From a virus (Duplodnaviria > Heunggongvirae > Uroviricota > Caudoviricetes): a stretch of 37,183 bases of DNA. Both the position numbers and the translations under genes were made by a program. The stretch lies in IMG/VR virus record IMGVR_UViG_2537562195_000008. One strand, given 5' to 3'. The number at the start of each line of letters is the position of its first letter. Positions within the stretch are counted from its first letter, which is position 1. The notes under the pieces are model-generated. The model worked only from the letters and a program-made list of their open reading frames with translations, made no database searches and was not told where the DNA came from. Below, one piece after another: positions 1-36,249 of the stretch.

Positions 1-1053
1 TTACGGGGTAATGCCAACCGCTGCCGCCACTTTGTCGCCACTTGGCAGCGTTGCCAGAGGATTGAAACGGAGCGCCGTTTCCAGATGATCCGGTGCCAGA
101 TGTGCGTAACGCATAGTCATTTTTATATCGTGGTGTCCGAGAATTTTTTGTAAGGCCAGAATGTTTCCACCCGACATCATGAAGTGCGCCGCAAACGTAT
201 GGCGCAGAACGTGTGTGAGTTGACCGCGAGGGAGCACGATAGACGTTTTTTCCATCACTGATAAAAATTGAAAATAGCAGTCTGTGAAGAAATTGAACCC
301 ATCAAGCGCCATGATCTCTTCGTAAAGCTCTTTACTGATAGGGATGCTTCTGTTTTTCTTCCCCTTCGTTCTGACAAAGGTAATTCGGTATTTGGTCACC
401 TGTGAGCGAGTAAGATTTACGGCTTCACGCCAGCGTGCGCCTGTGCTTAAGCATATCTTAACTACCAGTGCCAGAATTGGGTCCTGACGTTTGCAATCAG
501 CCAGCAATTCAACAATCTGCTCATGGGTAAGCCATGCCATCTCTTTTTCTGCGATGGTGAATTTTCGCATGTTCTCCAGTGGGTTCGGATACGACCATTC
601 GCCCAGACGGGATAGTTCGCTAAAAACACTACTTAGATAGCTTTGCTCCAGGTTAATGGTGACCGGGCTTGCTCCTTTCTTCCATTTCTCGCTGAAGTAG
701 ATCTCGCCTGTCAGGCGTTTATCTCGATAGTGGGCAAACATTTTAGAGGTGAGATCGGTTGCAAGAGGATTGCCCAGAGCGTCAACCATCAACAGCAATT
801 TGTCATAGACATGCTGCCCAGCTGTCAGAGATTTACCATGTAGTTTGAACCATAGTTCAACCACGTCTTTCAGTGTTCGACGATCCACTGATTCACCCAG
901 CCAGGGCTTTGCTTCGGTTTCTTCCATCGTGTGACGCTCAAAAGCCAGAGCTTCGCCTTTGGTGGCGAATTGTTTACGCACACGACGTCCACTACGTCCG
1001 GCGGGGTAACATTCGCAAAGCCATTTTCCTGTGGTGAGTTTTCGTACTGCCAT
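1..1053 (-). CDS. int: Tyrosine integrase (P2/186-like site-specific recombinase)
   Basis: 350-aa ORF; C-terminal catalytic region with conserved R...HxxR...Y pattern (ARWREA..., LRHTFAAHF..., MRYAHL) typical of phage integrases; first gene of prophage next to att repeat. Confidence 0.9.
   Translation of the reverse strand: MAVRKLTTGKWLCECYPAGRSGRRVRKQFATKGEALAFERHTMEETEAKPWLGESVDRRTLKDVVELWFKLHGKSLTAGQHVYDKLLLMVDALGNPLATDLTSKMFAHYRDKRLTGEIYFSEKWKKGASPVTINLEQSYLSSVFSELSRLGEWSYPNPLENMRKFTIAEKEMAWLTHEQIVELLADCKRQDPILALVVKICLSTGARWREAVNLTRSQVTKYRITFVRTKGKKNRSIPISKELYEEIMALDGFNFFTDCYFQFLSVMEKTSIVLPRGQLTHVLRHTFAAHFMMSGGNILALQKILGHHDIKMTMRYAHLAPDHLETALRFNPLATLPSGDKVAAAVGITP
19..40. repeat. attL: Putative attL core: 22-bp direct repeat CGCTGCCGCCA(C/A)TTTGTCGCCA shared with 34329..34350
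   Basis: Same 22-mer with one mismatch occurs at both prophage ends; the left copy lies inside the last codons of int, as is typical for P2-like att cores. Confidence 0.6.
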
Positions 1054-1136: not shown

Positions 1137-2813
1137 CTAAGCAACATGCAGTTCATCGTTGGCGGAAGTTGCTGCTTTGCGCTCTTGCTCAATCGCCAGT
1201 GACTCTCTATATTCTTTCGCTTCCGCAAACATTGTCCATTGTGCGTTGATGTTCATATCTTCAATAACAGACTTAATTTCTTTAATATTTACGTTGAAAA
1301 ACTCTTTTCGTGAGTTAATTTTATTGACCTGTTTTTCGTTGAAGACTTTATGCAGATGATTTTCTAATGATGGTGCATCATCACTATAAATCATCGCATG
1401 AACATCGAACGAAAAAGGAACACTAGCATCACCGAGTTCACGAACACGATCAAGTGGTTCAAGGCGGCGTGTCATTCCAATTTTATATACATCTTCGCCA
1501 AATGAGCCAATATTACTAATTATATAAACGTGGCCTGATCTAGTTTGTTGAGCCATAGAAATAGCTCGTTGGTTTTTAGCTTCAGCTTCTTCATATTTTA
1601 ACTGTAGTTCAGCTATTTTTTGCTCTAAAGCTAAGCGTTGTTCTTCATTTGCAAGCATAAGCTCTTTTGTTGCTTTATTTATAGCTTGCTGAATAGCTTT
1701 CTCTTCTTTTTCAGCTTCTTTTATCGCTTTTTCATACTCCCTACGAGCTCTTTCCTCTTCACGAAGTTGTTCTTTAATCCTTCTTTGCTCTTCTTTTTCT
1801 TCGAGCATAATTTCATTAACTGCAACTCCCCATTTTAGCTCGTTGAGTCGAGCTTGAAGATAGATGTCACTTATTTTTGCGGACCTAAAGGCAGAACCAT
1901 TGTAATTTACAAGTTGAAACGCATCTTTTATCTCTTGGGAAAGTTTTCCAAAATTGTTGTGTTTGACTTTTGATAAAATACTGTCAACTCTTCCATTGAA
2001 GGCATCTAAAACAAAGTTGATAGCAGTATTACGCCTGTTTTGTTCAACATAATCACACGAAGCAGCTTTATTAGTTTTTATTAATGATTTTGTTAACTCC
2101 CTGGCTTTTTGTAATTCCTTACCTGCATCTGTAAACTCATAATTTTCTGCCAATTCATCGAGAACGCTACGGTTAGGGATGATCCATTCATCACCATAAC
2201 CTTCAATTTTATTTTTCATTGATTTGGCAACTGCTTCATATTTTTCTGCAAACTCTTTAGCTTCATATGCTGAACCAGCAATCTCTTTTGCTCTTTCTTC
2301 TGCATCGGAAATAATTTTCACTGCATTGTCATTAGCATTTGAGATCAGCTCATTTGCTTTACTATTGGCATTATCAAGACGTTCTTTAGCTTTCAGGCGT
2401 GCATCGCGAGCGTCTTTAGTAATTGCTATAGCTTCGCTATTAGCGTTGCTTATTTTTATCTGAGCTTGATAATTTGCTTCGTTTACTGTCTTAGCAGCCT
2501 TTATTTGGGCTTCTTCTATTTTTTGCCTGGCTATTGAGTCTGCATTTTTTATCTTATTCTCTGCTTCCATCACTGCGCTGTGCAATTCTACGTATTGCCA
2601 TAATGGCGCAGCTCGTCCTTCAAGCTCTGATAGATCTCGTACAGTCTGTGCTAATTCTTCTTGATTTTCTTTCAGTTGGTTGGAAAGGGCTATGTTGTTA
2701 GCTGTCAAGGTATTTATAGCCGCTTTATGTTTTTTGCTTTGCTTAAATAATATTACAGCTAGAATGGGGGCGAGAAATGCTAATAAGAATATAACGATGG
2801 AAAATGAATTCAT
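1137..2813 (-). CDS. Membrane-anchored coiled-coil protein with DUF4041-like region and C-terminal T5orf172/MUG113 (GIY-YIG-like) domain; cargo gene
   Basis: 558 aa; N-terminal hydrophobic helix (IVIFLLAFLAPILAVILF); long E/K/A/Q-rich coiled coil; C-terminus GHVYIISNIGSFGEDVYKIGMTRRLEPLDRVRELGDASVPFSFDVHAMIYSDD...LHKVF matches the T5orf172 signature from memory; AT-rich relative to flanks. Confidence 0.7.
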   Translation of the reverse strand: MNSFSIVIFLLAFLAPILAVILFKQSKKHKAAINTLTANNIALSNQLKENQEELAQTVRDLSELEGRAAPLWQYVELHSAVMEAENKIKNADSIARQKIEEAQIKAAKTVNEANYQAQIKISNANSEAIAITKDARDARLKAKERLDNANSKANELISNANDNAVKIISDAEERAKEIAGSAYEAKEFAEKYEAVAKSMKNKIEGYGDEWIIPNRSVLDELAENYEFTDAGKELQKARELTKSLIKTNKAASCDYVEQNRRNTAINFVLDAFNGRVDSILSKVKHNNFGKLSQEIKDAFQLVNYNGSAFRSAKISDIYLQARLNELKWGVAVNEIMLEEKEEQRRIKEQLREEERARREYEKAIKEAEKEEKAIQQAINKATKELMLANEEQRLALEQKIAELQLKYEEAEAKNQRAISMAQQTRSGHVYIISNIGSFGEDVYKIGMTRRLEPLDRVRELGDASVPFSFDVHAMIYSDDAPSLENHLHKVFNEKQVNKINSRKEFFNVNIKEIKSVIEDMNINAQWTMFAEAKEYRESLAIEQERKAATSANDELHVA

Positions 2814-2833: not shown

Positions 2834-3430
2834 TTAATTTGAAACTATTGTACTTCTTATACAAGCAACTACTTCAATATCAGAAAATGCACATTCAAAG
2901 CTATTCTCTGTACTTGTAATTTTAATCATACCTTTTGGAAGCTTTGTGATTTTTCGAATGGAATAGGTTCCGTCGATGTTGATTAACCAGTGCCCATCAA
3001 GTACTTCAGAAAATTTTTGATCACAAATGTATGTGACGAGCCCATCCTGAATAACAATTGGTGATGAAAGATTTGCAGGAAGAAATGATGAATCGAAGAC
3101 ATATGAACCATCTTCAATCATTTTGCCTGCGGTAAGGCGAAACTTGGCAAGCTCTTCTGTAGCTGCTGTCAGCGAGCTTTGCTTAAGGCCTTGCCCGGTG
3201 GTTAACCATTTCAGTGAGGTTCCTGTTTCAAGAGCACATTGGATTATCCAGTCTGCAGGAAACGTATCCCGCAAATACCTGTTCGCCAGAGTGCTTTTTG
3301 ATACTTCCAAGTGATCAGCTAAAGCCTGTCGTGTCGTAAAGCCATAAGCTTCGACTAATCGCTCAATCGCAGCCTTACCACCTTTATTGGGATTTATTTT
3401 GATCTCATTTGGGTACTTTGATGTTGACAT
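2834..3430 (-). CDS. cI: Immunity repressor CI (186-type: N-terminal HTH, C-terminal oligomerisation domain)
   Basis: 198 aa; resembles 186 CI as recalled (…EAYGF…LA..L.VS.STLANRY…CALETG..L.WL.TG…); divergent from the early lytic operon. Confidence 0.8.
   Translation of the reverse strand: MSTSKYPNEIKINPNKGGKAAIERLVEAYGFTTRQALADHLEVSKSTLANRYLRDTFPADWIIQCALETGTSLKWLTTGQGLKQSSLTAATEELAKFRLTAGKMIEDGSYVFDSSFLPANLSSPIVIQDGLVTYICDQKFSEVLDGHWLINIDGTYSIRKITKLPKGMIKITSTENSFECAFSDIEVVACIRSTIVSN
3406..3418. promoter_or_regulatory. Putative operator repeat copy 1 (CATTTGGGTACTT) in the cI/apl switch region
   Basis: Exact 13-bp direct repeat with 3465..3477, about 59 bp apart, flanking the cI start and the divergent pR region. 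Confidence 0.4.
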
Positions 3431-5330: not shown

Positions 5331-6184
5331 GCACCATCTTGAAATGGGCGGGAAATAAAACCGCCGTAATGTCCGAACTGAAAAAACATCTTCCTGCTGG
5401 TCCGCGACTAGTTGAACCTTTCGCGGGTTCCTGTGCTGTGATGATGGAGACGGATTATCCCTGCTATCTGGTTGCGGATATTAATCCTGATTTAATCAAC
5501 CTCTATAAAAAGGTTGCCGCTGATTGTGAATCGTTTATATCTCGCGCCAAAGTTTTATTTGAGATCGCAAACAGGGAGGTGGCTTATTACAACATAAGGC
5601 AGGAGTTTAATTACTCAACTGAAATTACTGATTTCATGAAAGCGGTATATTTCCTGTATCTCAATCGTCACGGTTACCGTGGGTTATGTCGCTATAACAA
5701 GAGCGGGCATTTCAACATTCCCTACGGTAATTATAAAAATCCGTATTTCCCTGAAAAAGAAATTCGCGCTTTTGCAGAAAAAGCCCAGCGAGCAACGTTT
5801 ATCTGCGCCAGCTTTGATGAAACGCTGGCGATGTTGAAGGCGGGGGATGTGGTGTATTGCGATCCGCCTTATGACGGTACGTTTTCCGGCTATCACGCTG
5901 ACGGCTTTACTGAAGATGACCAGTATCACCTGGCATCCGTTCTTGAACATCGGTCATCAGAAGGACATCCGGTCATTGTTTCTAACAGTGACACATCCCT
6001 GATCCGTTCGCTGTATCGCAATTTTACTCACCACTATATCAAGGTAAAACGCAGCATCGGCGTAGCAGCTGGTGAGAGTAAATCAGCAACAGAAATCATT
6101 GCTGTTTCCGGGCCGCGCTGCTGGGTGGGATTTGATTATTCGCGTGGCGTGGATAGTTCTGCCGTGTACGGAGTACGTGCATGA
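5327..6184 (+). CDS. dam: DNA adenine methyltransferase (Dam-like, orphan N6-adenine MTase)
   Basis: Internal ATG overlapping upstream stop (ATGA); N-terminal KWAGNK…EPFAGSCAV (AdoMet-binding) and DPPY catalytic motif (VYCDPPYDG). Confidence 0.85.
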
Positions 6185-8595
6185 GCCATGCCGATATGAG
6201 CAACTGCTGCGGCTTTAACGAGGCTGCCGCATCGTTCTCATGGAACAGCCCGAAAAAGGCCATTAACCCTTATCTGGACCCGGCGGAAGTTGCGCCGGTT
6301 TCTGCGCTTTCAAACCTGATCACTCTGTACGCTGCCGATAACGAGCAGGAACAACTGCGCCGCGAGGCACTGAGTGATCAGGTCTGGGAGCGTTATTTCT
6401 TTAATGAATCCCGTGATCCTGTCCAACGCGAAATAGAGCAGGATAAGCTCATTAGCCGGGCAAAGTTGGCGCATGAGCAGCAGCGTTTTAACCCGGACAT
6501 GGTCATTCTGGCAGACGTCAGCGCCCAGCCCTCCCATATCAGCAAGCCGCTGATGCAACGTATTGAATACTTCAGCAGCCTGGGCAGGCCAAAGGCTTAT
6601 TCCCGCTATTTACGTGAGACGATTAAGCCATGTCTGGAACGACTGGAGCATGTACGCGACAGCCAGCTATCTGCATCTTTTCGTTTTATGGCAAGCCATG
6701 TAGGGCTGGACGGCCTGCTGATTCTGCCTGAAATGAGTCAGGATCAGGTGAAACGCCTGTCTACCCTTGTCGCTGCGCATATGAGCATGTGCCTTGATGC
6801 AGCTTGTGGTGATTTGTATGCCACCGATGACGTTAAGCCAGAAGAAATCCGCAAGACATGGGAAAAGGTGGCAGCGGAAACCCTGCGTCTGGATGTCATC
6901 CCGCCTGCGTTTGAGCAACTCCGTCGGAAAAGAAACCGCCGTAAACCCGTGCCCTATGAACTCATTCCGGGTTCGCTGGCGCGTATGTTGTGCGCCGACT
7001 GGTGGTACCGGAAATTATGGAAAATGCGTTGCGAATGGCGGGAAGAGCAGTTGCGTGCTGTCTGCCTGGTCAGCAAAAAAGCATCTCCCTATGTCAGCTA
7101 TGAAGCCGTGATGCATAAACGTGAGCAGCGCCGCAAGTCACTGGAGTTTTTCCGTTCTCATGAACTGGTGAACGAAGAGGGCGACACGCTGGATATGGAA
7201 GACGTGGTAAACGCCAGCAGCAGCAACCCGGCGCACCGCCGCAATGAGATGATGGCCTGTGTTAAAGGTCTGGAGCTTATCGCGGAAATGCGCGGTGACT
7301 GCGCCGTTTTCTACACCATTACCTGTCCGTCACGTTTCCATTCCACGCTCAATAACGGCAGACCAAACCCAACCTGGACAAATGCGACGGTAAGACAAAG
7401 CAGCGATTATCTGGTCGGCATGTTTGCTGCATTTCGTAAGGCGATGCACAAAGCCGGGTTGCGCTGGTATGGCGTGCGGGTGGCTGAGCCGCATCATGAC
7501 GGTACAGTTCACTGGCACCTGTTGTGTTTCATGCGCAAAAAAGACCGCCGCGCCATTACTGCATTGTTGCGTAAGTTTGCCATCCGTGAAGACCGCGAGG
7601 AACTGGGTAATAACACTGGTCCACGCTTTAAATCTGAGCTGATAAACCCGCGCAAAGGAACGCCGACAAGCTACATCGCGAAATACATCAGTAAGAACAT
7701 TGACGGGCGTGGTCTGGCTGGCGAGATCAGCAAGGAAACGGGTAAATCCCTGCGTGATAACGCTGAATACGTTAATGCCTGGGCGTCTCTGCATCGTGTT
7801 CAGCAATTCCGCTTCTTTGGTATTCCGGGACGTCAGGCTTACCGTGAACTTCGCTTGCTGGCTGGTCAGGCGGCAAGGCAACAGGGTGACAAAAAAGCAG
7901 GTGCGCCGGTACTGGATAACCCGCGTCTTGATGCCATTCTGGCTGCTGCTGATGCTGGTTGTTTTGCCACCTACATCATGAAGCAGGGCGGCGTACTGGT
8001 TCCCCGCAAATATCACCTCATCAGAACCGCTTATGAAATCAACGAAGAGCCAACCGCCTATGGCGATCACGGTATTCGTATTTATGGCATCTGGTCACCC
8101 ATTGCAGAGGGCAAGATCTGCACTCATGCAGTGAAGTGGAAAATGGTTCGTAAGGCCGTTGACGTTCAGGAGGCGGCAGCCGACCAGGGCGCTTGCGCCC
8201 CTTGGACTCGTGGCAATAACTGTCCCCTTGCTGAAAATTTGTACCAACAAGGGAAAGACAAATCAGCTGATGGGGGCTCCAGAACGGACATTACCCGCAT
8301 GGATGACAAGGAATTGCACGATTACCTGCACAGTATGAGCAAAAAAGATCGCCGGGAGCTGGCAGCAAGGTTGCGCCTGGTGAAACCGAAACGGCGTAAA
8401 GACTACAAACAGCGAATTACAGATCATCAGCATCAGCAGCTCGTCTATGAACTGAAGTCCAGAGGATTTGATGGCAGCGAGAAAGAAGTCGATTTGCTCC
8501 TTCGCGGTGGCAGTATTCCGTCAGGAGCAGGCTTGCGTATCTTCTATCGGAACCAGCGTTTGCGGGAAGATGATAAGTGGCGGAACCTGTATTAA
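6181..8595 (+). CDS. A: Replication initiation endonuclease A (rolling-circle HUH nickase, P2 gpA family)
   Basis: 804 aa; HUH-type motif [10 protein letters not shown] and downstream tyrosine-containing segment ([10 protein letters not shown]); start overlaps dam stop (ATGA). Confidence 0.85.
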
Positions 8596-8689: not shown

Positions 8690-8705
8690 CTGTAAATATA
8701 AACAG
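8690..8705. promoter_or_regulatory. LexA (SOS) box CTGTAAATATAAACAG
   Basis: Perfect CTGT-N8-ACAG palindromic half-sites with AT-rich spacer, about 45 bp upstream of the tum-like ORF. Confidence 0.75.
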
Positions 8706-8748: not shown

Positions 8749-8937
8749 ATGCAGGACTATTTTTTGGAGTCTTTGAAGCTCCAGCGCATTGATTTTTTTC
8801 TTAAGCTTGTAGCGGCTAGTGAGTGTAGTGATGAAGAGAAGGGGCTAGCTTTGCAGTGGGTTTCTGAACTAACAGATGAACTCATGGCAAAAATCAGAAC
8901 CCACGAATACAACCGCTCAATGGATGTCATCAGTTGA
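8749..8937 (+). CDS. Tum-like antirepressor N-terminal part (SOS-controlled)
   Basis: 62-aa ORF from internal ATG directly after GGAGGAAAG; downstream of LexA box; by 186 analogy the LexA-controlled gene is the antirepressor tum. Confidence 0.45.
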   Translation: MQDYFLESLKLQRIDFFLKLVAASECSDEEKGLALQWVSELTDELMAKIRTHEYNRSMDVIS

Positions 8938-8947
8938 GGTGACTTTT

Positions 8948-9181
8948 ATGCGCATTGAAATAATGATCGATAAAGAGCAGAAGATTAGCCAGTCTATCCT
9001 GGACGCCCTTGAATCCGAGCTTTACCGCAATCTGCGCCCCCTGTATCCCAAAACGGTAATTCGTATCCGCAAAGGTAGCTCTAACGGTGTGGAACTGACC
9101 GGACTGCAACTGGACGAAGAAAGAAAACAAGTGATGAAAATTATGCAGAAAGTGTGGGAAGACGACAGCTGGCTGCATTAA
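8948..9181 (+). CDS. DinI-like protein (Tum C-terminal/DinI family)
   Basis: 77 aa from internal ATG of ORF 8876..9181; MRIEIMIDKEQKISQSILDALESEL…VIRIRKGSSNGVELTG…MQKVWEDDSW resembles the DinI fold sequence. Confidence 0.7.
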   Translation: MRIEIMIDKEQKISQSILDALESELYRNLRPLYPKTVIRIRKGSSNGVELTGLQLDEERKQVMKIMQKVWEDDSWLH

Positions 9182-9187
9182 GAAACG

Positions 9188-9222
9188 TTGCTGGCGTCTG
9201 AACTTGCTTCTGGCGCCAGCAA
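9188..9222. other. Inverted repeat (TTGCTGGCG … CGCCAGCAA) after the DinI-like gene; possible terminator
   Basis: 9-bp perfect inverted repeat containing palindrome CTGGCGCCAG; no obvious T-tract, so the terminator assignment is weak. Confidence 0.3.
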
Positions 9223-9384
9223 GGTTGAACAACGAGCCGTGCGAGGCGTTAGCTCTGTGGTGCATGTCTATGCCGCATGAGATCGCATGATCGTTTGAGG
9301 ATCGTTTTTGCTAAGGCCCGCCAGAACTGTCGGGCTTTTGCGTAGATCATGCAGGTGCATGAAAACCACTACATAAAGCGGGCA

Positions 9385-9403
9385 GGCGTGGCGGGGATAC
9401 GAG
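9385..9403. other. cos: Putative cos (cohesive-end) site, P2/186-like GGCGTGGCGGGGA…
   Basis: GGCGTGGCGGGGATACGAG resembles the P2/186 19-nt cohesive end as recalled (GGCG(A/T)GGCGGGGAAAGCA…); lies in a non-coding gap between the early region and the portal-side island. Confidence 0.5.
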
Positions 9404-9577
9404 CGCGCGCTGATAGGGTAATCGTCAAAACAGGCATCAGCTAGGTTGAGTTGTAGCGGTGCTTAAGTTTGCTCGTTGTTTGATAGAGCTTAATGTATGT
9501 AATTGCCTACAGCTGTGGTTATCTATTAACATGTAAGGATAAGGTCACTTGCTCGCTGCCATTAGAAGAGGAACTGG

Positions 9578-10048
9578 ATGTCTATCGAGGAAAAATTTTT
9601 TAGTGATATCGATTTAAAAGATCCGTTTTTTAACAGCCTAAGAGCTGATTATGAAGGATTTGATGTTTGGTTTCTCTCAAAAGGTAAAAATAAGGCGTTT
9701 GTATCACGTAATGAATTAGGTGAAATCGATGGTTTTCTCTATTTGAAAATAGAAGATGAAGAGTTGAGTGATATGACTCCAACGTTTCCAAAGATGAAGC
9801 GAGTAAAGCTTGGCACATTTAAAATCGATGCTCATGGAACCAAACTTGGAGAGCGTTTTATTAGAATTATGTTTCAATTTGCTATGAGAAACAAACTAAA
9901 AGAAGTATATGTTACTATATTTGATAAGCATTCAGGGTTAATTCGCTTATTAACTAAATATGGTTTTGTTTTAAAGGCGAGGAAAAATCTTTCTACGATT
10001 AATGGGCAAGAAGGTGTATACTTTAAAAACTTGGTATGGAAGGAGTAA
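9578..10048 (+). CDS. Hypothetical protein, possibly GNAT-fold N-acyltransferase-like; island gene 1
   Basis: 156 aa; C-terminal half (…KLGTFKIDAHGTKLGERFIRIMFQFA…EVYVTIFDKHSGLIRLLTKYGFVL) resembles GNAT motifs A/B; AT-rich. Confidence 0.5.
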   Translation: MSIEEKFFSDIDLKDPFFNSLRADYEGFDVWFLSKGKNKAFVSRNELGEIDGFLYLKIEDEELSDMTPTFPKMKRVKLGTFKIDAHGTKLGERFIRIMFQFAMRNKLKEVYVTIFDKHSGLIRLLTKYGFVLKARKNLSTINGQEGVYFKNLVWKE

Positions 10049-10051
10049 AAA

Positions 10052-10633
10052 ATGAGCTATGCTAATTATCCCTTAGTCAAATTGCAGGGGAGAAATTATT
10101 TATTAAGTATTTATCCTGCATGGCATACACGTCTTTTCCCTGAGTCAAAACTCCACAATGAGAGTGCTGGTATCATCGCTGATATATCACATACCAACAG
10201 TATTGAAAAAGTATACTTAACAAAAATGCATGGGGTAGCCAGCCTAAAGCCTGGAGATAATTTGCTTATTTATCGTACTTCAGATGGACAAGGTCCAGCT
10301 CGGTTTAGATCTGTTGCAACTTCAGTGTGTGTGGTTCAGGAAATTAAAGATATTCACGATTTCTTAACTTATGAGGAATTTAAGAATTACTGTGAACCTT
10401 ATAGCGTTTTTGATGAAGATGAGTTACAGCTTCTATATATGAAAAAAAATTATCCGATAATTATACGGTTTACTTATAATTTCCCTTTGGAAAAAAGAGT
10501 TATTCGTGATGAAATCATGAATATTACAGGTTATACCAATAGTGATTATTGGGGTTTTTTACCACTAACTGATTCAGCATTTAAGCAGATTGTCTTACAG
10601 GGAGGTGTTGATGAAAGTTTTATTATCGATTAA
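10052..10633 (+). CDS. Hypothetical protein; island gene 2
   Basis: 193-aa ORF tightly linked (4-nt gap) to the upstream gene; no motif recognised; AT-rich. Confidence 0.55.
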   Translation: MSYANYPLVKLQGRNYLLSIYPAWHTRLFPESKLHNESAGIIADISHTNSIEKVYLTKMHGVASLKPGDNLLIYRTSDGQGPARFRSVATSVCVVQEIKDIHDFLTYEEFKNYCEPYSVFDEDELQLLYMKKNYPIIIRFTYNFPLEKRVIRDEIMNITGYTNSDYWGFLPLTDSAFKQIVLQGGVDESFIID

Positions 10634-10980
10634 GCCAGAGTATGCAGAGAGTATACTTTCTGGTAAAAAAATATGAGTTTCGGAAAAATATTTTTAGAAA
10701 TAAAAATGTTGATACGATAGTTATTTACGCAACGATGCCGGTTGGCAAAGTAATAGGTGAATTTAAAGTAGGAGATATTCTTGCTCTATCCCCTTCAGAA
10801 TTGTGGGATAAAACGAAAGCTCATGCAGGAATTACACATTCTTTTTTTAAAGATTATTTCCACCAAAGAGAAAAGGCTTTTGCTATTTCCATCAAAAGCC
10901 CTAAAAGATATAAATTCCCTGTCGACTTAAATGAGTTGATTCCCGGCGGCGTCGCCCCACAGTCTTATCGTTATTTATAA
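10611..10980 (+). pseudogene. ASCH/PUA-like domain protein interrupted by a frameshift at an A7 tract; island gene 3
   Basis: ATG at 10611 encodes MKVLLSIKPEYAESILSGKK then hits TGA; the listed ORF 10642..10980 continues in another frame with …YEFRKN…IVIYATMPVGKVIGEFKVGDIL…AFAISIKSPKRYKFPVDL…; together they form a typical ASCH domain; the frames meet at poly-A 10665..10671. Confidence 0.5.
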
Positions 10981-11520
10981 TGTTGTCTGGGCATGTTTCT
11001 TAACCATGCCCAGTTTTTCTAGGGCAATAGATAAATCGTTTGTTGTTGGGGATTCTAAGATAATTAATGGTACATTGATTTTATTTGTAACATATTTTGC
11101 GTTTTCTCTTTCAGCTTCCATCAGCTTATTTAAATCATAAGTAATATCACTCCCATCTCGTTTCATTATTCGTTCTCTAATTGTATCGGGAGACTCCTCA
11201 ACTAAAATTACTCCATCTAGCCCCATTTCCTCAAATACTTCTTGCTTGAGAACTTCAATATCTCCATTTTTATTTATTAAGGTAAAATGACCATCCAATA
11301 AAATATTGGATACCTTTGACTTTAATGCATTAAGTGCCGTAAGTAATATTGATTGGTTTTTATCAGGTGTGGCCGTTAACTTACTGTTATCAAATTTAAT
11401 ATTAGAATTATTTTTTATAAGTTCGCTTGCGCTTACATGAGTTACCCCGAAATCATCTTTTGCAAATGAACACAAGTAACCTTTGCCTACACCATGAACA
11501 CCTGCTATGAAAATTAACAT
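10975..11520 (-). CDS. P-loop NTPase, nucleotide/nucleoside kinase-like; island gene 4
   Basis: 181 aa; Walker A GVHGVGKG at the N-terminus, hhhhD Walker B-like ILLDGHF; size and layout like small adenylate/dNMP kinase-like ATPases; RBS GGAGG upstream. Confidence 0.6.
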   Translation of the reverse strand: MLIFIAGVHGVGKGYLCSFAKDDFGVTHVSASELIKNNSNIKFDNSKLTATPDKNQSILLTALNALKSKVSNILLDGHFTLINKNGDIEVLKQEVFEEMGLDGVILVEESPDTIRERIMKRDGSDITYDLNKLMEAERENAKYVTNKINVPLIILESPTTNDLSIALEKLGMVKKHAQTTL

Positions 11521-11585
11521 AGTATTACCTCCGTTTATTTATTTATGTTAGAATGTTATAGCCTTAGCATAGTAGAGGATAGAGC

Positions 11586-11963
11586 ATGAAGTTTCAAGCT
11601 ATATCGATTTTGACTCCAGCGGTAGAAAATATTATAAATGGTTCTAAATCTATCGAAATACGGTCGTGGTATCCTGAAACGATACCATTAAAAAACGTCA
11701 TTCTTGTTCAGAATGATAAATATCTTAAAAATCAAAGCGATATAGATCATGGGGTGGCTATGGCTATTGTCGATTTTGTTTCAGTTAGAAATTGGTCATA
11801 TGAGGATTACTTAAAACAAAACCAAGAAACAACTCTTAATAAGCCTTGGTCTCCAGGTTATTATGTGTGGGAAATTAAAAATGTTAGAATTTTAAAAAAA
11901 TCTATTCCTTGTGTGGCGAGGAAAGGTATTTATACAATAGATTTAAATATGGATTATATATAA
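11586..11963 (+). CDS. ASCH/PUA-like domain protein; island gene 5
   Basis: 125 aa; …SKSIEIRSW… and C-terminal …YVWEIKNVRILKKSIPCVARKGIYTIDL match the ASCH pattern (Y-x-W-x-L…P…kG.qgi) from memory. Confidence 0.6.
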   Translation: MKFQAISILTPAVENIINGSKSIEIRSWYPETIPLKNVILVQNDKYLKNQSDIDHGVAMAIVDFVSVRNWSYEDYLKQNQETTLNKPWSPGYYVWEIKNVRILKKSIPCVARKGIYTIDLNMDYI

Positions 11964-11974
11964 GGTATTGTGAG

Positions 11975-12766
11975 ATGTGTGGTGCCATTCTTCGAAATAT
12001 TAAGCGTTATGCCATTATTTATTCACTGTTGTTTTTGGCTTTTATTTTAATGCTGATAGTGTTTGTTAGCTATGTTTGTAAATTTGGAATGTATTCATGG
12101 AGTGATTCCGTAGAGAAATGGGGACAGTTTGGCGATTATATTGGTGGTGTACTGAATCCTGCTCTGGCCTTTATCTCTATCATGCTTGTTTGTTTCACAC
12201 TATATTCTACATCTAGGCAGTCATCTATTCAGTCATTCGAGTCTGTGTTATTTGAGTTACTAAGATTTCATAAAGATAACTTATCAGAAATTAAAACAAC
12301 GTATTCAGATGGAAAAGTGTATGTAGGACGGGAGGCTCTTTCATTATACATTACCGAAGTGAAGTTTAACCTACTTAATATTGTGGATGATTCACTTCCT
12401 TTGGATGAAAGGTTAGAGCTTTCAGTTAATATGGTTTATCTGGAAGGTGACAATTTTGCGAATGTGGGACATTATTTCAGGAATATTTACCATATTTTTA
12501 AACATATCAATGACTCTAACTATTTGACTGAGAAAGAAAAAACCAAGTATGCGAAATTAGTTAGAGCACAAATATCTTCTATAGAATCTGGCGCGATGCT
12601 ATTAAATGGTTTTTCATCGGTAGGAAAGCCTGCCAAGAAATTTATTGAAAAATATTCTCTCCTTCAGGGGTTTAGTTTAAGTAAGGAATTCAAGCAGCAA
12701 TTACATGATTTAGGTGCCTTAAAATTATACGATGACGTTGCTTATGAGGATAAAAAAGGGCATTAA
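11975..12766 (+). CDS. Membrane protein with two N-terminal TM helices and a cytoplasmic domain (candidate effector); island gene 6
   Basis: Internal ATG of ORF 11909..12766; hydrophobic helices IIYSLLFLAFILMLIVFVSYV and IGGVLNPALAFISIMLVCFTLY; stop overlaps the convergent portal gene stop. Confidence 0.55.
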   Translation: MCGAILRNIKRYAIIYSLLFLAFILMLIVFVSYVCKFGMYSWSDSVEKWGQFGDYIGGVLNPALAFISIMLVCFTLYSTSRQSSIQSFESVLFELLRFHKDNLSEIKTTYSDGKVYVGREALSLYITEVKFNLLNIVDDSLPLDERLELSVNMVYLEGDNFANVGHYFRNIYHIFKHINDSNYLTEKEKTKYAKLVRAQISSIESGAMLLNGFSSVGKPAKKFIEKYSLLQGFSLSKEFKQQLHDLGALKLYDDVAYEDKKGH

Positions 12767-13809
12767 ATGCCCTTATCTTGGTCAAGGATGTAGTCATTAA
12801 ATGACACAATATTTTGATTTATCCAGGTGTTTAGCTCAACTAGTCTTTTCTGCAAAGGAACCAACTCATTTCTGACAAAAACCTTCGCGGCTTTTTCCAC
12901 ATCCCCAAACCCTCCAACATTATTAGGCATAATCCCCATCATTTGCGGCGGCACGCGGTGCGCAGCCATCATGTCATCACGGCTCACGTTCTTGATATTC
13001 AGAAACTCATCCTTCGCCGCAACTTCTGACAACGGGATGATCTGAAGCCCGTCCTTTTTGCCGTTAGGCGAGTACATAAACAGGTTGCGGAAGTTGCCTG
13101 GACCTTTGGCGCTTTTCATCGCATTGCGGAGGTTGTTCACATCCTCCTGGTTCTGCGCGGCATCGGTCATGTATATGATGAAGCCTGCATGACTACCGTT
13201 AATGTAATACTTCCGGCGGAACAGCGTGGCGGACTCGTTGAGCAAAGCGGATGGGATGGCAGAAAGATAGCCGGGCAGGCCGTAGATCTCCTGATTAATA
13301 TCCGGTTCCATCAGATGAAAAATGCTGCCTTTCGTGAACTGATACGGCTGGGTTGTCATACCGTATTGCACAAACCAGTAGGTCTCCAGGTCTAACCCGC
13401 GTCGGGTATATTTTGCCAGAGCAGGCTCAAGGGCGATAACTTCACCGAAGCGGTTCGTGCGTTTCTCCAGGTAGGCGTTACCAAATACCAGATAGTCCTG
13501 CACAAAACGTGAAAAAGCCTGCTGGCTGAGCAGCGGGTGAGGGATGTAGGTACTGGTCAGAATGTTGCATTTTACTGCAATCGGTGAGCTGTGATGCACG
13601 GCAGCGCGGAAGGTTCGTGCCAGTCCGTCAAAGCTGACGGGCGGCTCATACCAGCGGTCCATCTGTACGCATTCCACATAGTCCAGCAGTTCACGGCGGT
13701 CCAGAACAGGAACGGGATCGCCAAAGCTGAATGCTTCGGCTGAAGTCTGGCTTTTATGCTTGAGCTGATTCGTCGCCGCAGCGCGGTTTTTCTTACTCTT
13801 TCCCATCAA
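12763..13809 (-). CDS. Q: Portal protein (P2 gpQ family)
   Basis: 348 aa; position and orientation as P2 Q, start overlapping the terminase stop; sequence character typical of P2-like portal. Confidence 0.85.
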   Translation of the reverse strand: MMGKSKKNRAAATNQLKHKSQTSAEAFSFGDPVPVLDRRELLDYVECVQMDRWYEPPVSFDGLARTFRAAVHHSSPIAVKCNILTSTYIPHPLLSQQAFSRFVQDYLVFGNAYLEKRTNRFGEVIALEPALAKYTRRGLDLETYWFVQYGMTTQPYQFTKGSIFHLMEPDINQEIYGLPGYLSAIPSALLNESATLFRRKYYINGSHAGFIIYMTDAAQNQEDVNNLRNAMKSAKGPGNFRNLFMYSPNGKKDGLQIIPLSEVAAKDEFLNIKNVSRDDMMAAHRVPPQMMGIMPNNVGGFGDVEKAAKVFVRNELVPLQKRLVELNTWINQNIVSFNDYILDQDKGI

Positions 13810-15572
13810 AAAATCTCCACAATATTGCTGGTATTGGCGGATTCACCCTGCAGCGGTTCGTTAAACAGTGCGTGCATCGTTGCCCAGGCCAGATCGGCGT
13901 GGCTGGCTTCTTCGCTGCGGCTGGCTTCATAGGTCGGGCGGTTGCCGCTGGCGGTGGTGGCGCGACGGATTGCCATGAATGACAGCGCAATGTCGGTGTG
14001 CCCGGCGTCAAACTCCAGACGGCGGTGGCTGATAATGTCGTAGGCCTTGAGTACCAGGGCGTTTTTAACATTGGGGTTGTAGACAAACTCCCGGACGGCA
14101 GGAAAGAACGCTTTCACGTTCTCATAAACCCCGTGACCAACGCCGGTTGAGTCGATACCGATATAGGTCACGTTGTACTGTTCGGAGAGTTTTTTGATGG
14201 CGTCAGCCTGGGCGCGGAAGTCCATCCCGCGCCACTGGTGACGCTCAAGAATGCGGAACTTACCACCCGGCACGGCTGGCGGAGCCACCACCACGCATCC
14301 GGCACTGTCGCCGTTCTGCGTACCTTTTGCCGGGTCATAACCGATCCACACTTCGCGCCAGCCAAACGGGCGCAGGGCCAGTGCATGAAAGTCGGTCCAG
14401 ACTTCCCAGCTGTCCACCATGCACGCCTGCAGTTCGCTGAGCGGGAACACGGACGCGAGATCGTCCACGAACTCGCACATCAGCAGGTTCTGGTATTCGT
14501 CCGGGCTGTACTCCATGCGTAGCTGGTCGAGGTCGAACAGGTTACAGCCGCCGCGCACCGCATCTTCCACGGTGACTATCTGGCGGTATTGCCCGTCTGC
14601 GCACAGCAGGCCGGGGGCCAAATTGCTGTGGGACAGGTCGATGTCCACCTTGTCAGCTTTGTTGCGTCCACGGTTGAACAGCGCACCGGACCAGAACGGA
14701 TAAGCACTGTGGGTCAGGCTGGATGGCGTGGAAAAATAGGTTTGTCGCCATTTTTTGTGAATAGCCATCCCGGAAGCCACTTTGCGCAGCTCCTGGAATT
14801 TCGGTATCCAGAAATATTCATCCAGATACAGGTTGCCGTGATAACTCTGGGCCGTGCGGGCATTGGTGCCGAGGAAGTAAAGCGTGGCTCCGTTAGGAAG
14901 CACCATCGGATCGCCTTTTAGCTCCACCTCGACTTCTTTGGCGAAGTCGATGATGTATTGTTTAAAGACGTGGGCCTGAGCCTTACTGGCAGAAAGGAAA
15001 ATCTGGTTACGTCCGGTAAGCAGGGCGTCAATCAGGGCTTCACGGGCAAAATAGAAGGTCGCGCCGATCTGGCGTGACTTCAGCAGGTTGCGGATGCGGT
15101 TGGTTTTTCCGGCTTCCCACCAGTGGCGCTGGTAGTTGAACATGGAGGAATGGAAGATTTCTTCCAGCTTCTCAATCTGCTCATCGGTGAAAACATTCTT
15201 TTCCGGCTGACGGCGTGGGCCTTTATTGCGGTTGGCGACGTTAGGGTTTAAGTCGGCTTCGTTGCCGCCATTGTTAAACTTGCCGATCCGCGCGTGGCGC
15301 TCAGACTGGCGCGCCAGCAGGTCAATCTCTTTGAAATCTTTCCCTTCTTTGTGCTCCTTCATAATGAGCTGGCAGTAGCGTGCGGCGGTGGTGAGCTGCA
15401 TCTGATCCAGCGGCCCATAGTCACCCCACTTGTCGCGTTTTTTCCAGCTGTGAACGGTTGCAACTTTCTCGCCCAGCATTTCAGCAATGCGGGCTACGCG
15501 GTATCCCTGAAAGTACAGCAGCATGGCCTGCCGACGGGGATCGAGATCTGCGGGTGTCAGTGTGGTGTTCAT
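13806..15572 (-). CDS. P: Terminase large (ATPase) subunit (P2 gpP family)
   Basis: 588 aa; divergent from the O-N-M-L operon exactly as in P2; N-terminal DNA-binding segment and ATPase/nuclease core. Confidence 0.85.
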   Translation of the reverse strand: MNTTLTPADLDPRRQAMLLYFQGYRVARIAEMLGEKVATVHSWKKRDKWGDYGPLDQMQLTTAARYCQLIMKEHKEGKDFKEIDLLARQSERHARIGKFNNGGNEADLNPNVANRNKGPRRQPEKNVFTDEQIEKLEEIFHSSMFNYQRHWWEAGKTNRIRNLLKSRQIGATFYFAREALIDALLTGRNQIFLSASKAQAHVFKQYIIDFAKEVEVELKGDPMVLPNGATLYFLGTNARTAQSYHGNLYLDEYFWIPKFQELRKVASGMAIHKKWRQTYFSTPSSLTHSAYPFWSGALFNRGRNKADKVDIDLSHSNLAPGLLCADGQYRQIVTVEDAVRGGCNLFDLDQLRMEYSPDEYQNLLMCEFVDDLASVFPLSELQACMVDSWEVWTDFHALALRPFGWREVWIGYDPAKGTQNGDSAGCVVVAPPAVPGGKFRILERHQWRGMDFRAQADAIKKLSEQYNVTYIGIDSTGVGHGVYENVKAFFPAVREFVYNPNVKNALVLKAYDIISHRRLEFDAGHTDIALSFMAIRRATTASGNRPTYEASRSEEASHADLAWATMHALFNEPLQGESANTSNIVEIF

Positions 15573-17626: not shown

Positions 17627-18277
17627 ATGAGCCTGAGTCCCGCACGGCAGCATCGCCTGCGCGTTCAGGCTGAACAGGCCGCTCGCGAGGGTGGTAGTGT
17701 TCGCCACGCGTCGGGCTATGACCTGATGCTGCTGCAACTGGCGGAAGACCGCCGCCGTCTCAAGGGCGTTCAGTCCACGGTCAAAAAAGCGGAAATCAAG
17801 GTGGAGCTGCTGCCGAAATATGCCGCCTGGGCGGAGGGTGTTCTGGCTGCCGGAGGCGCTCAACAGGATGACGTGCTGATGTACGTGATGCTGTGGCGTA
17901 TTGATGCCGGAGATTATGCCGGGGCGCTGGAGATCGGGCGTCATGCCCTGCGTCATGGCTGGGTGATGCCGCTGGGTAACCGCAATGTGCAGACCGTGCT
18001 GGCAGAGGAAATGGCAGACGCGGCACAGAGCGCAATGCTTGCCACTACCGGCTTTGATGCCGATCTGTTACTGCAGACGCTGGAGCTGACAGACGGTCTG
18101 GATATGCCGGACCAGTCACGGGCGCGTCTGCATAAAGCGATTGGCGCTGTCCTGAGTGAAAGCAACCCGGCTTCCGCCCTTAATCATCTCAACCATGCGT
18201 TACAGCTCGATCCTCGCTGTGGCGTGAAAAAAGACAAACAGCAGCTGGAGCGCAGACTGCGCAATGACAGCCGCTGA
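17627..18277 (+). CDS. M: Terminase small/endonuclease subunit (P2 gpM family)
   Basis: 216 aa following N; canonical position. Confidence 0.75.
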   Translation: MSLSPARQHRLRVQAEQAAREGGSVRHASGYDLMLLQLAEDRRRLKGVQSTVKKAEIKVELLPKYAAWAEGVLAAGGAQQDDVLMYVMLWRIDAGDYAGALEIGRHALRHGWVMPLGNRNVQTVLAEEMADAAQSAMLATTGFDADLLLQTLELTDGLDMPDQSRARLHKAIGAVLSESNPASALNHLNHALQLDPRCGVKKDKQQLERRLRNDSR

Positions 18278-21284: not shown

Positions 21285-22337
21285 ATGATTAAATTAATGT
21301 CTGAATATAATGATGATTATAAAAAACTAGAAAGATATATTGAAGAGTATATTATAAGGAATAGTCTAGGCACTCAGGTATATAAAGAGGATCAGTTGGC
21401 TCAGTCATTAAATAGTGATGAGGGTTTTTCTTATGTGCGTAATAAAATGGATAATTTACCTTCTGATTGTATTGAAGAGTTATCAAACAATATTCAAGGT
21501 GTAGTTACTCTTCCAACAATCTATGATGATCGTGTGAGTTATAGCATTGCATCTCGCTTGATGAGTAAGGTTGAATTAGTAGCAAAGATATTTCCTTTTG
21601 ATCACCAAAACTATGGTGGGTTTTGTTGTGCTCCAACCGGCAGAGTTAGTGCACTTGCCGCGCCAGTTAAATGCCTAGACGGAAAGTCAAAGGTTTTCAC
21701 AATTTTTGAGTCTGGGATTTTTCAATTTATTCATGGTGTAATTAGTTTGTTTGTTAGCAGTTATCCTAATACTCTTCTGCAAGGTAGTAGTGAAAAAGAG
21801 TGGCGGTCAGAGTGGGAAAAATATTTGAGTAGTGAGCAGAATAGAAGCGCTTTATTACAAAGCAAGATTGACTTAAACGAATGGAGGGATTTTTTTAAGA
21901 ATTACAATGTACGTGGTGAACTTGCTTATACATCGATAATTAACTTCGGTCCTGTAGGGCAAAAGATTATATATAATATGGTCTTTGGCTGTGAGTTATT
22001 CGTAGCCGCTCATGAATATTCTCATGCCATGATGAATCATCAGCAGCCTGATTTAGTTGAATCAGAGGTTGAGAAGGAGGCTGACAAATGGGGGATTAGG
22101 ATTGCGTCCATTATATGTGAAGGTGAAGGTATTCTGATGATTCTTGCGATTGCTGGAATAGCTATATTTTTTTCGGCAATTGAAACGTCTGATCCATCTC
22201 ACTATTTACCAGCAGCTGAACGAATATTGTTCGTGATAAAGTCCTTGGAGATCTCTGATCCTATTAAGGAAAAAACTCTTATTGATATTTCTTGTTTAAT
22301 GCAGGATATATTTTCCGACATTATTAATTTTGAATGA
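21285..22337 (+). CDS. Putative Zn-dependent metallopeptidase (HExxH) with C-terminal hydrophobic helix; cargo gene between S and V
   Basis: 350 aa; motif AAHEYSHAMMNH with downstream acidic residues (EVEKEADKWG); hydrophobic stretch ILMILAIAGIAIFFSAI; strongly AT-rich. Confidence 0.6.
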   Translation: MIKLMSEYNDDYKKLERYIEEYIIRNSLGTQVYKEDQLAQSLNSDEGFSYVRNKMDNLPSDCIEELSNNIQGVVTLPTIYDDRVSYSIASRLMSKVELVAKIFPFDHQNYGGFCCAPTGRVSALAAPVKCLDGKSKVFTIFESGIFQFIHGVISLFVSSYPNTLLQGSSEKEWRSEWEKYLSSEQNRSALLQSKIDLNEWRDFFKNYNVRGELAYTSIINFGPVGQKIIYNMVFGCELFVAAHEYSHAMMNHQQPDLVESEVEKEADKWGIRIASIICEGEGILMILAIAGIAIFFSAIETSDPSHYLPAAERILFVIKSLEISDPIKEKTLIDISCLMQDIFSDIINFE

Positions 22338-34109: not shown

Positions 34110-34328
34110 ATGATGATTTGCCCACTGTGTGGAAGTGCCGCCCATACTCGCAGCAGTTTTCAGGTATCTTCATTGACCAAAGAGCGTTACAACCAGTGCC
34201 AGAACATTAACTGCAGCCATACTTTTGTTACCCATGAAACTTTTGTTCGTTCGATTGCAACGCCAAAAGAGTCAAATCCGGTTCAGCCGCATCCAATGAA
34301 ATCAGGACAGGTGGCGCTCTCTCTTTGA
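34110..34328 (+). CDS. ogr: Ogr/Delta-family zinc-finger late-gene transcription activator
   Basis: Internal ATG; CPLCGSAAHTR…KERYNQCQNINCSHTF…PHP…SGQ matches the Ogr C2C2 pattern as recalled. Confidence 0.85.
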   Translation: MMICPLCGSAAHTRSSFQVSSLTKERYNQCQNINCSHTFVTHETFVRSIATPKESNPVQPHPMKSGQVALSL

Positions 34329-34563: not shown

Positions 34564-36249
34564 TTATCCTAATCCTGGCCATACCATGACGATGATTGTC
34601 CCTGCCAGCGTCAGCAGGACGTTGGCGATTGCGTAGGTGCCCGCATAGCCCAGCGCAGGGATGTTACTGCGAGCTGTATCACTGATGATCTCCATTGCCG
34701 GCGCGCAGGTGCGTGCGCCCATCATTGCGCCGAACAACAGTGCGCGGTTCATTCGCAATACATAAGCACCGAACAAGAAACAGATAACCACGGGCACAAG
34801 ACTGACAATTAATCCGGCAATCAACATCTGACCGCCAATCGCGCCCAGGCCGTTATTAATACCGCTACCGGCGCTCAGACCAACGCCTGCCATAAACACC
34901 ATCAAGCCGAACTCTTTCACCATGCTTAATGCACCTTGCGGAATGTAACCGAAGGTCGGGTGGTTAGCACGCATAAAGCCCAGCATAATTCCGGCGAATA
35001 ACAACCCGGCAGCGTTCCCCATGCCGAAACTGAATGTGCTGAACTGGAAGGTGATCATCCCGATCATCAGCCCAATAACAAAGAAGGCGCAAAATGCCAG
35101 CAGGTCAGTGACCTGGCTGTGAATCGAGATAAAGCCGATGCGATCGGCGATGGTTTTTACGCGACGGGCATCACCGCTGACTTGTAAAACGTCACCTTTG
35201 TTAAGCACGACGTTGTCATCTATCGGCATCTCAATCTGGCTACGAATGACGCGGTTAAGGAAGCAACCGTGATCGGTCAACTTCAGTTGTGCGAGACGTT
35301 TACCTACAGCGTTATGGTTTTTAACGACCACTTCTTCAGTGACGATACGCATGTCGAGAAGGTCACGATCGAAAACTTCTTTACCGTTACGGAAGCTGGG
35401 ATCGAGTCGGGCATGGGCGTCGGGATAGCCTACCAACGCTATTTCATCGCCCATTTGTAGCACGGCATCACCGTCTGGATTTGCCAGAATCCCGTTACGT
35501 CGAATACGTTCAATGTAGCAGCCGGTTTGTCGATAAATACCCAGTTCACGCAGATTTTTGCCGTCGGTCCAGGCCACCAGCTCCGGGCCGACGCGATAGG
35601 CGCGGATCACCGGTAAATAAACCTTACGGTTGGCATCAGTGTCCAGGCCACGTTCGCGGGCGATTTGCTGGGCGCTGGTCTGTAAGTCCTGATGCTGCAA
35701 TTTCGGCAAGTAACGCGCACCAACAATCAAACTCACCAGACCGATTAAATAGGTTAAGGCATACCCGAGGCTCAGATTATCCAGTGCCAGTGAGAGCTGC
35801 CTGCTTTCCATGCCGAAATGACGCAGTGTATCGCCAGCACCGACCAGAACCGGTGTCGACGTCATAGAGCCTGCTAACATACCGGCCGTCAGGCCAATAT
35901 CCCAGCCAAACAGCTTACCTAACCCTAAGGCGATCACCAGCGCACTGCCAACCATCACCAGTGCTAACATTAGGTAATTTTTCCCATCGCGAAAAAAAAT
36001 GGAAAAAAAGTTCGGTCCGGCTTCGACCCCGACGCAGAAAATAAACAGCATAAAGCCAAGATTAAGCGCATCGGTGTTAATGCTGAAATGTTGTTGGCCT
36101 AATAACAGCGATACGACTAAAACGCCAATGGAATTACCCAGTTGGATCGAACCAAGTCGTAACTTTCCGAGACATAGCCCAAGCGCGAGGACCACAAATA
36201 ATAACAGAATGTAATTCCCATTTAACAATTCGGCGACGTTTATATTCAC
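34564..36249 (-). CDS. ybjL: Putative transport protein YbjL (AspT/YidE/YbjL family, two TrkA-C domains)
   Basis: 561 aa; N-terminus [42 protein letters not shown]… matches E. coli YbjL as recalled. Confidence 0.9.

Follow-up and report, generated by a model that had tools for sequence, protein, structure and literature searches.

A predicted P2-family cos site in a Fels-2/Elveevirus-type prophage, bordering a variable cargo island

Introduction

The packaging site of P2-family phages is reportedly made up of 19-nt cohesive ends within a 55-bp core, a description said to go back to Ziermann and Calendar in 1990. The cos-proximal region between gpA and gpQ is likewise said to have been recognized as a hotspot by Dodd and Egan in 1996. 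Descriptions of the 55-bp core, of the 19-nt 5' ends and of circles as the substrate for packaging are available for the family (PMC3931495, PMC5694545, PMC2231350), and both P2 and P4 favour closed monomeric circles for packaging (PMC2231350). The hotspot itself has been described for P2-like phages (Rousset et al. 2022, PMC9122126; also PMC13586616).

P2 has 19-nt ends, the 55-bp core, a gpP/gpM terminase and an accessory or defence locus by cos, between gpA and gpQ. In coliphage 186, the 19-nt 5' ends of which have been defined experimentally, cos has a LexA-controlled tum/dinI operon and a terminator towards the right end and the portal gene towards the left end. P4 is a satellite that has neither terminase nor structural genes, and its 19-mer is of the P2 type (AAAGCAC). 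The cos site of phage lambda is comparable in that staggered terminase nicks generate 5' cohesive ends and that an asymmetric recognition region (cosB) lies on one side, but lambda is not a member of this family: its overhang is 12 nt long, its cos sequence and terminase small subunit are unrelated, and it packages from concatemers.

A further set of relatives consists of the Salmonella phage SEN8 (Felsduovirus), Fels-2, RE-2010, the Klebsiella phage 4LV2017 and the Escherichia phage Cartapus, in which cos is preceded by dinI and followed by a variable slot that leads up to the portal gene; the sites in these phages are predicted ones too. Here, we describe a site of the same kind at positions 9385-9403 of the window, that is, the whole stretch of 37,183 nucleotides that was analysed (IMG/VR record IMGVR_UViG_2537562195_000008). 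For the exact 19-mer at this site a cos prediction is already in print, the 55-bp core belongs to the textbook picture of the family, and several descriptions of the hotspot exist.

The Predicted Cohesive-End Sequence

The 19-mer GGCGTGGCGGGGATACGAG can be read directly at 9385-9403 on the plus strand. It lies in a gap of 396 bp without long ORFs, which extends from the dinI stop at 9181 to the ATG of the first cargo ORF at 9578; this bears out the earlier note, made from the letters alone, that a cos-like motif is present in an intergenic region of about 400 bp. The cohesive ends of P2 and 186 as given in the same note agree with the starts of both records: NC_001895 of P2 (cosL 1-19) begins with GGCGAGGCGGGGAAAGCAC and NC_001317 of 186 (cos 1-19) with GGCGTGGCGGGGAAAGCAT. 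The window sequence is a G+C-rich 19-nt homologue of GGCG(A/T)GGCGGGGA... and is unique, with a single match on both strands when three mismatches are allowed. The 13-mer that it has in common with P2 and 186, GGCGWGGCGGGGA, has one site in the window with at most one mismatch, where shuffled sequences lead one to expect 0.03; overall, the chance expectation for the motif is 0.01-0.03 matches per window. The 19-mer is identical to 186 at 15 of 19 positions and to P2 at 14 of 19. With respect to 186, the first 13 nucleotides are the same and the last six differ (TACGAG versus AAGCAT), so that the 3' half is ATACGAG in the window and AAAGCAT in 186.

This sequence is found unchanged in several described phages, namely Fels-2, RE-2010, ST11-VIM1phi8.4 (Klebsiella), 813R9 (E. 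coli) and MLG42 (Yersinia), and with one mismatch in the Klebsiella phage 4LV2017. It also forms positions 1-19 of the SEN8 record (NC_047753), where it is annotated "putative cos site"; that record ends with the base that aligns to 9384, its ends having been set by annotation. The SEN8 genome announcement gives cos as ggcgtggcggggatacgag, identified during annotation (PMC5427200). The Cartapus record has the entry "putative cos site, homologous to the cos of P2 phage" for its positions 1-59, which align to 9353-9411. The 3' half ...ACGAG recurs in the predicted cos of SEN4/SEN5 (PMC5261728) and of the Stenotrophomonas phage Smp131 (PMC3931495); judged from these sequences, the variant is widespread and not a local oddity. 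Full-text searches for mapped termini of this cos variant, carried out with the 13-mer GGCGTGGCGGGGA and with SEN8, gave annotation-based statements only.

The Conserved Core

The circular junctions of P2 and 186 were rebuilt from both ends of their linear records and then aligned to the window. Over an ungapped block of 56 bp (9355-9410, plus strand), the window matches P2 at 43 of 56 positions and 186 at 44 of 56; P2 and 186 agree with each other at 48 of 56 over the same 56-mer. When the reference 56-mers were slid along both strands of the window, position 9355 was the unique best placement, the runner-up reaching 29-30/56. The similarity extends beyond the 19-mer and spans GTGCATgAAAACC..(n)..AAAGCGGGCA / 19-mer / CGCGCGC. 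The flanking sequence that is conserved in the window, P2, 186 and P4 alike reads GTGCATgAAAACC...AAGCGGGCA / 19-mer / CGCGCGC, and the phages of the SEN8 group have the same flanks (...AAAGCGGGCA / 19-mer / CGCGCGC). The earlier note had made its proposal depend on the conservation of flanking terminase-recognition sequence, and such conservation is what the comparison with P2, 186 and P4 brings out. Over a slightly longer interval, 9353-9414, the window is 96.8% identical to Cartapus.

An exact-match scan of IMG/VR for the 19-mer returned at least 120 contigs, and P2-like gpA, dinI, portal or gpP was present nearby in 105 of the 120 among the matches listed. From the listed matches a conservation profile was made with 112 distinct versions of the site and flanks of 200 nt. 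Two stretches of this profile, -29 to -20 and -9 to +25, reach an information content of about 1.9-2.0 bits; the values then drop to 1.14 at +26 (position 9410), 0.59 at +27 and 0.19 at +28, with noise beyond. Expressed as base conservation among the same matches listed, the values are 0.98-1.00 at 9404-9409, 0.83 at 9410, 0.52 at 9411 and 0.30 at 9412. At every column of the core, 9355-9410, the window carries the majority base of the 112 distinct copies listed. The right-hand boundary is also apparent in pairwise comparisons, homology to Fels-2, 813R9, 4LV2017 and ST11-VIM1phi8.4 stopping at 9410-9413. To the left of cos, similarity within the clade runs for more than 120 bp further. This long leftward conservation is partly shared ancestry of the dinI side and not constraint; the comparison with P2, P4, 186 and more diverged contigs suggests that the constrained left part extends from about -38 to -1.

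Symmetric Elements and Predicted Nicks

The 19-mer, the counterpart of cosN, is flanked by two 7-bp elements, GCGGGCA on the left (9378-9384) and CGCGCGC on the right (9404-9410), which together form an imperfect inverted repeat; the latter comprises the last conserved bases before the cargo junction. In the window, five of seven positions of the left flank agree with the reverse complement of the right flank. The score is 5-6/7 in P2, 186, P4 and five of six satellite loci, and 4/7 in the satellite L140. From this anatomy, the inverted flanks would serve to position the two staggered nicks. By analogy with the annotation of the 186 record, the nicks are predicted at 9384/9385 on the top strand and at 9403/9404 on the bottom strand, and every predicted nick comes after GC(A/G). 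The 5' overhangs would then be GGCGTGGCGGGGATACGAG at the left end and its complement at the right end. The exact overhang is extrapolated, as its last six bases (TACGAG) are unlike the mapped ends of P2, 186 and P4.

At the outer edge of the conserved block lies a palindrome, TCATGCA-GG-TGCATGA (9347-9362), the 7-nt arms of which are 100% complementary. Its arms are perfect in 91 of 115 relatives among the matches listed, and in the same set the 2-nt spacer varies (GG in 79, CC in 20, and others). The arms score 6/7 in 186 and 4/7 in P2, which does not have the left arm. A dimeric DNA-binding protein, for instance terminase, may bind at the palindrome, and the anatomy suggests that the asymmetric left block in which the palindrome is included acts as the terminase recognition region. 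A hairpin or terminator role was considered for the left flank as well, a scan having pointed to a weak hairpin on the minus strand at 9366-9381, and was rejected. Since P2, 186 and the window share no pairing register, this flank is treated as a protein-recognition sequence.

Genomic Context

A complete set of P2-type genes is found in the window in the form of long ORFs, namely int, CI, gpA, Q, P, O, N, M, tail genes, D and ogr. The integrase gene (1-1053, minus strand) and a gene for a 186-type CI repressor (2834-3430, minus strand) are followed by the gene for gpA, the replication initiator that nicks at the origin (6181-8595, plus strand; phrog_91, E = 1.3e-288). On the other side of cos are the genes for the portal protein, a gpQ homologue (12763-13809, minus strand; phrog_68, E = 2.7e-175), and for the terminase large subunit, a gpP homologue and the presumed cos nuclease and ATPase (13806-15572, minus strand; Terminase_5, Terminase_6N, Terminase_6C). 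The small terminase subunit, a gpM homologue, is encoded at 17627-18277 on the plus strand (PF05944 Phage_term_smal, 1.4e-40). The resulting order gpA - dinI - cos - [cargo] - gpQ - gpP - O - N - gpM is that of P2 and 186, where cos likewise lies between the gpA side and gpQ. The portal protein has 61% amino acid identity to P2 gpQ and 93% to the Cartapus portal. Because gpP is 99.5% identical at the amino acid level to that of the isolated phage Cartapus and 97.1% to that of Fels-2, a cognate P2-type terminase for this cos variant is encoded in the element itself.

On the right-end side, the arrangement of gpA, SOS operon, terminator, cos and portal is as in 186. A LexA-box-like sequence, CTGTAAATATAAACAG, is present at 8690-8705 on the plus strand and is the only CTGT-N8-ACAG in the window. 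It precedes a small ORF (8749-8937) and dinI and is placed like the LexA site at p95 of 186. The DinI/Tum-like gene dinI (8948-9181, plus strand; PF06183 DinI 2.5e-22, phrog_189) is the last gene before the predicted right end of the virion DNA. Its unit is ended just upstream of cos by a hairpin with U-run that resembles a Rho-independent terminator (9313-9340, plus strand) and that occupies the position of t95b in 186. The predicted fold of this terminator amounts to -16.2 kcal/mol, versus -23.4 in phage 813R9; it is weaker because a G-to-T change at 9330 breaks a stem pair. This position is T in the window and G in 98% of 112 relatives among the matches listed. With T at 9330, transcription of the LexA-controlled dinI unit may to some extent continue past the terminator and across cos into the cargo genes, which have the same orientation. 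Some differences from 186 are to be noted: in that phage cos and the portal gene are separated by about 180 bp, there is no cargo in between and orf97 is found on the other side of cos.

Other features of the prophage lie at a distance from cos. Between the genes for integrase and CI repressor, an ORF of 558 aa (1137-2813, minus strand) is strongly homologous to the defence protein PD-Lambda-1 (E = 5e-120) and carries DUF4041 and T5orf172/MUG113 domains; it represents a second defence locus of the prophage. An ORF of 350 aa (21285-22337, plus strand), located between the tail-completion genes and the baseplate gene V, may be an accessory slot; it has no match to a Pfam family and only a weak PADLOC match, to peptidase_U41 (3e-8). 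An Asp-Al_Ex/TrkA_C transporter gene at 34564-36249 on the minus strand is evidently a host gene, and therefore attR should fall between the end of the ogr-like ORF at 34328 and about 34560. The window begins at the integrase stop codon, and attL probably lies outside it.

The Cargo Island and the Cos-Proximal Hotspot

Directly after the core, at the junction 9410/9411, a variable island of about 3.4 kb begins (about 9411-12820). Its ORFs comprise a PDC-M11A-like gene in two parts (9578-10048 and 10052-10633), a PDC-M11B-like ORF (10642-10980), an AAA_17 kinase-like ORF on the minus strand (10975-11520; Pfam), a further ORF (11586-11963) and a putAbiC-like ORF (11909-12766; Pfam putAbiC 1e-18). 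The matches to the PADLOC candidate system PDC-M11A/B are strong (E = 1e-58, 6e-69 and 4e-38). On the basis of these candidate and annotated families (PDC-M11-like, AbiC-like), the cargo can be regarded as candidate anti-phage defence genes. The PDC-M11A model is a single protein of about 357 aa, which is split in the window by a stop at 10046-10048. In eight E. coli genomes with 98.9-99.7% identical DNA, the annotations within the matching stretch are two hypothetical proteins and an ASCH-domain protein, and the PDC-M11A split may be a natural two-gene form. A search of 8900-9700 for a sigma-70-like promoter for the cargo found none.

The relatives become homologous again at 12818-12850, within the final ~20 codons of the portal gene. 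This terminal part of the gene (12763-12850) is different in each of the relatives. One hairpin, GGGCAUUAAAUGCCC (12757-12773), holds in its loop the stop codons of both the portal gene and the convergent putAbiC-like ORF, and it looks like a bidirectional terminator brought in with the cargo.

The interval is highly variable among otherwise syntenic phages. When 114 right flanks were compared (113 IMG/VR copies among the matches listed, and the window), they fell into 79 unrelated clusters, and the window's cargo was common to three contigs among the matches listed. With window positions 9300-10700 as query, the cos end was matched in 1277 of 5426 complete E. coli genomes and this cargo in eight. 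The same slot is occupied in relatives by retron St85, AIPR, Hypoth_Ymh, DUF4145 or HNH genes. Within the SEN8 group, the phages differ only in the cargo after +26 and in an optional insert between dinI and the left block; SEN8 carries a hypothetical protein and an HNH endonuclease, Cartapus a DUF4145 protein and 4LV2017 retron St85. The island adjoins the cos core on the side of the portal gene and is an instance of the known cos-proximal gpA-gpQ hotspot. The portal-proximal location that the earlier note had assigned to it holds in the genetic-map sense only, the island lying next to the portal gene with cos between gpA/dinI and portal. The tolerance to insertions supposed there is in keeping with a position bounded by the cos core and, on the other side, by the 3' end of the convergent Q-P operon. 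In P2, by contrast, the cargo genes (old, tin) occupy the interval from gpA/orf91 to cos, on the right-end side, whereas the main cargo of the window is on the left-end side, between cos and gpQ; cargo downstream of +26 is shared with P4 and phiCTX.

A second, smaller variable slot is present on the dinI side of cos. It covers 82 bp in the window (9180-9261), which include a strong hairpin (9184-9226, -26.2 kcal/mol). Fels-2, 4LV2017 and ST11-VIM1phi8.4 have about 850 bp in its place, and in Fels-2 (STM2726) and ST11-VIM1phi8.4 a gene is annotated there.

The Same Core in P4-Type Satellites

The block is found again in P4, with CGCGCGC following the 19-mer, and the sequences diverge at once beyond it; the variable genes of P4 (gop, beta, cII) begin directly after the core, on the same side as the cargo of the window. 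The core architecture also recurs in six P4-like loci retrieved through Psu, of which the 3' halves are AAAGCAC, AGAGCAT and ATAGCAT variants. Among the 120 IMG/VR loci listed with the exact 19-mer, no P4-like locus was encountered. A satellite with the ATACGAG variant was absent from both sets, that is, from the six Psu-retrieved loci and the 120 listed loci, which is a small sample. The satellites L136-L140 (Enterobacter, Tatumella, Citrobacter, Kluyvera, Photorhabdus) add further cos variants, GGCGTGGCGGGGAGAGCAT and ...ATAGCAT, with unchanged core boundaries. Within the 19-mer it is mainly positions 14-19 that vary, a hint of variants specific to particular helpers.

Interpretation and Alternative Explanations

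Taken at the level of sequence, 9385-9403 is very probably the packaging cut site (cos) of a Fels-2/Elveevirus-type prophage of the P2 family (Peduoviridae). This reading is based on sequence homology, position, the conservation profile, the cognate terminase genes and the hypervariable neighbouring interval. It has to be weighed against the notion that a G+C-rich sequence resembles cos by chance, or that it is another element, such as a terminator or promoter, and no packaging signal at all. The region is indeed G+C-rich and a weak minus-strand hairpin was flagged at 9366-9381, but the low number of matches expected by chance, the 56-bp similarity to mapped cos sites, which is unique in the window, and the synteny with P2 and 186 make such a coincidence extremely improbable. 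Moreover, P4-type satellites, which otherwise have nothing in common with these phages, keep the block, and the left-flank hairpin lacks a consistent pairing register across P2, 186 and the window. It is just as hard to believe that the site is the cos of an inserted P4-like satellite, or of some other second element, instead of that of the resident prophage. P4-like satellites do carry the same core beside a defence hotspot, on the same side of the cut. The neighbourhood of this site, however, is free of P4 genes (alpha, sid, delta, psu), and the window has a single cos. On the left, the sequence passes without a break into the dinI/gpA region in 105 of 120 related contigs among the matches listed; on the right, it leads into the portal gene that belongs to this same phage.

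It could also be imagined that the site is a genuine cos homologue but a relic, never cut, in a prophage that is defective or cannot be induced. The T at 9330, by weakening the adjacent terminator, indicates some drift in the region. Yet the core itself has the majority base at every column of the 112 copies listed and is nearly the same as that of Cartapus, the P2-type genes are all present as long ORFs and gpP is almost identical to that of an isolated phage, so that a relic seems improbable. For the preferred reading, a cos site that is still in use, we infer that the prophage is active, that the nicks are exactly as predicted and that terminase binds the palindrome and the left block.

The course of events would then be as follows. 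After excision and replication, terminase, composed of gpP (13806-15572) and gpM (17627-18277), would recognize the core of about 56-64 bp (9347/9355-9410). It would introduce one nick before 9385 in the top strand and one after 9403 in the bottom strand, and the linear genome with its 19-nt 5' overhangs would be packaged. The left virion end would consist of the 19-mer, seven conserved bases and the cargo island, which makes up the first ~3.4 kb, followed by the portal gene. At the right virion end, gpA would be followed by the dinI unit under LexA control, the terminator of this unit and, last, the asymmetric recognition block. On the right of the cut, only 7 bp would be needed and the next essential element would be the 3' end of the convergent Q-P operon; for this reason, the interval from the cut to the Q-P operon would be free for replacement.

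Two more speculative proposals, both improbable, can be added. The junction at 9410/9411, which recurs as a +26 boundary in P2, 186, P4 and the satellites, could mark recombination initiated at the cos end. The free left end of cut or injected DNA could then be the point of entry for swaps of defence cargo between phages and satellites. The ordinary alternative is that the +26 boundary is simply what selection leaves of a minimal cos. In addition, the 3' half of the ATACGAG type may set a packaging-specificity group apart from the P2/186/P4 type.

Conclusions

If there is indeed an ATACGAG specificity group, it would limit which satellites such helpers mobilize. For the prophage itself, the position of cos would fix the ends of the packaged genome and orient the prophage map, the predicted 5' ends of the virion DNA being 9385 (top strand) and 9403 (bottom strand). 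It also delimits the accessory island as about 9411-12820. The PDC-M11-like and AbiC-like candidates are thereby placed in a well-described hotspot, which aids both annotation and the search for defence systems.
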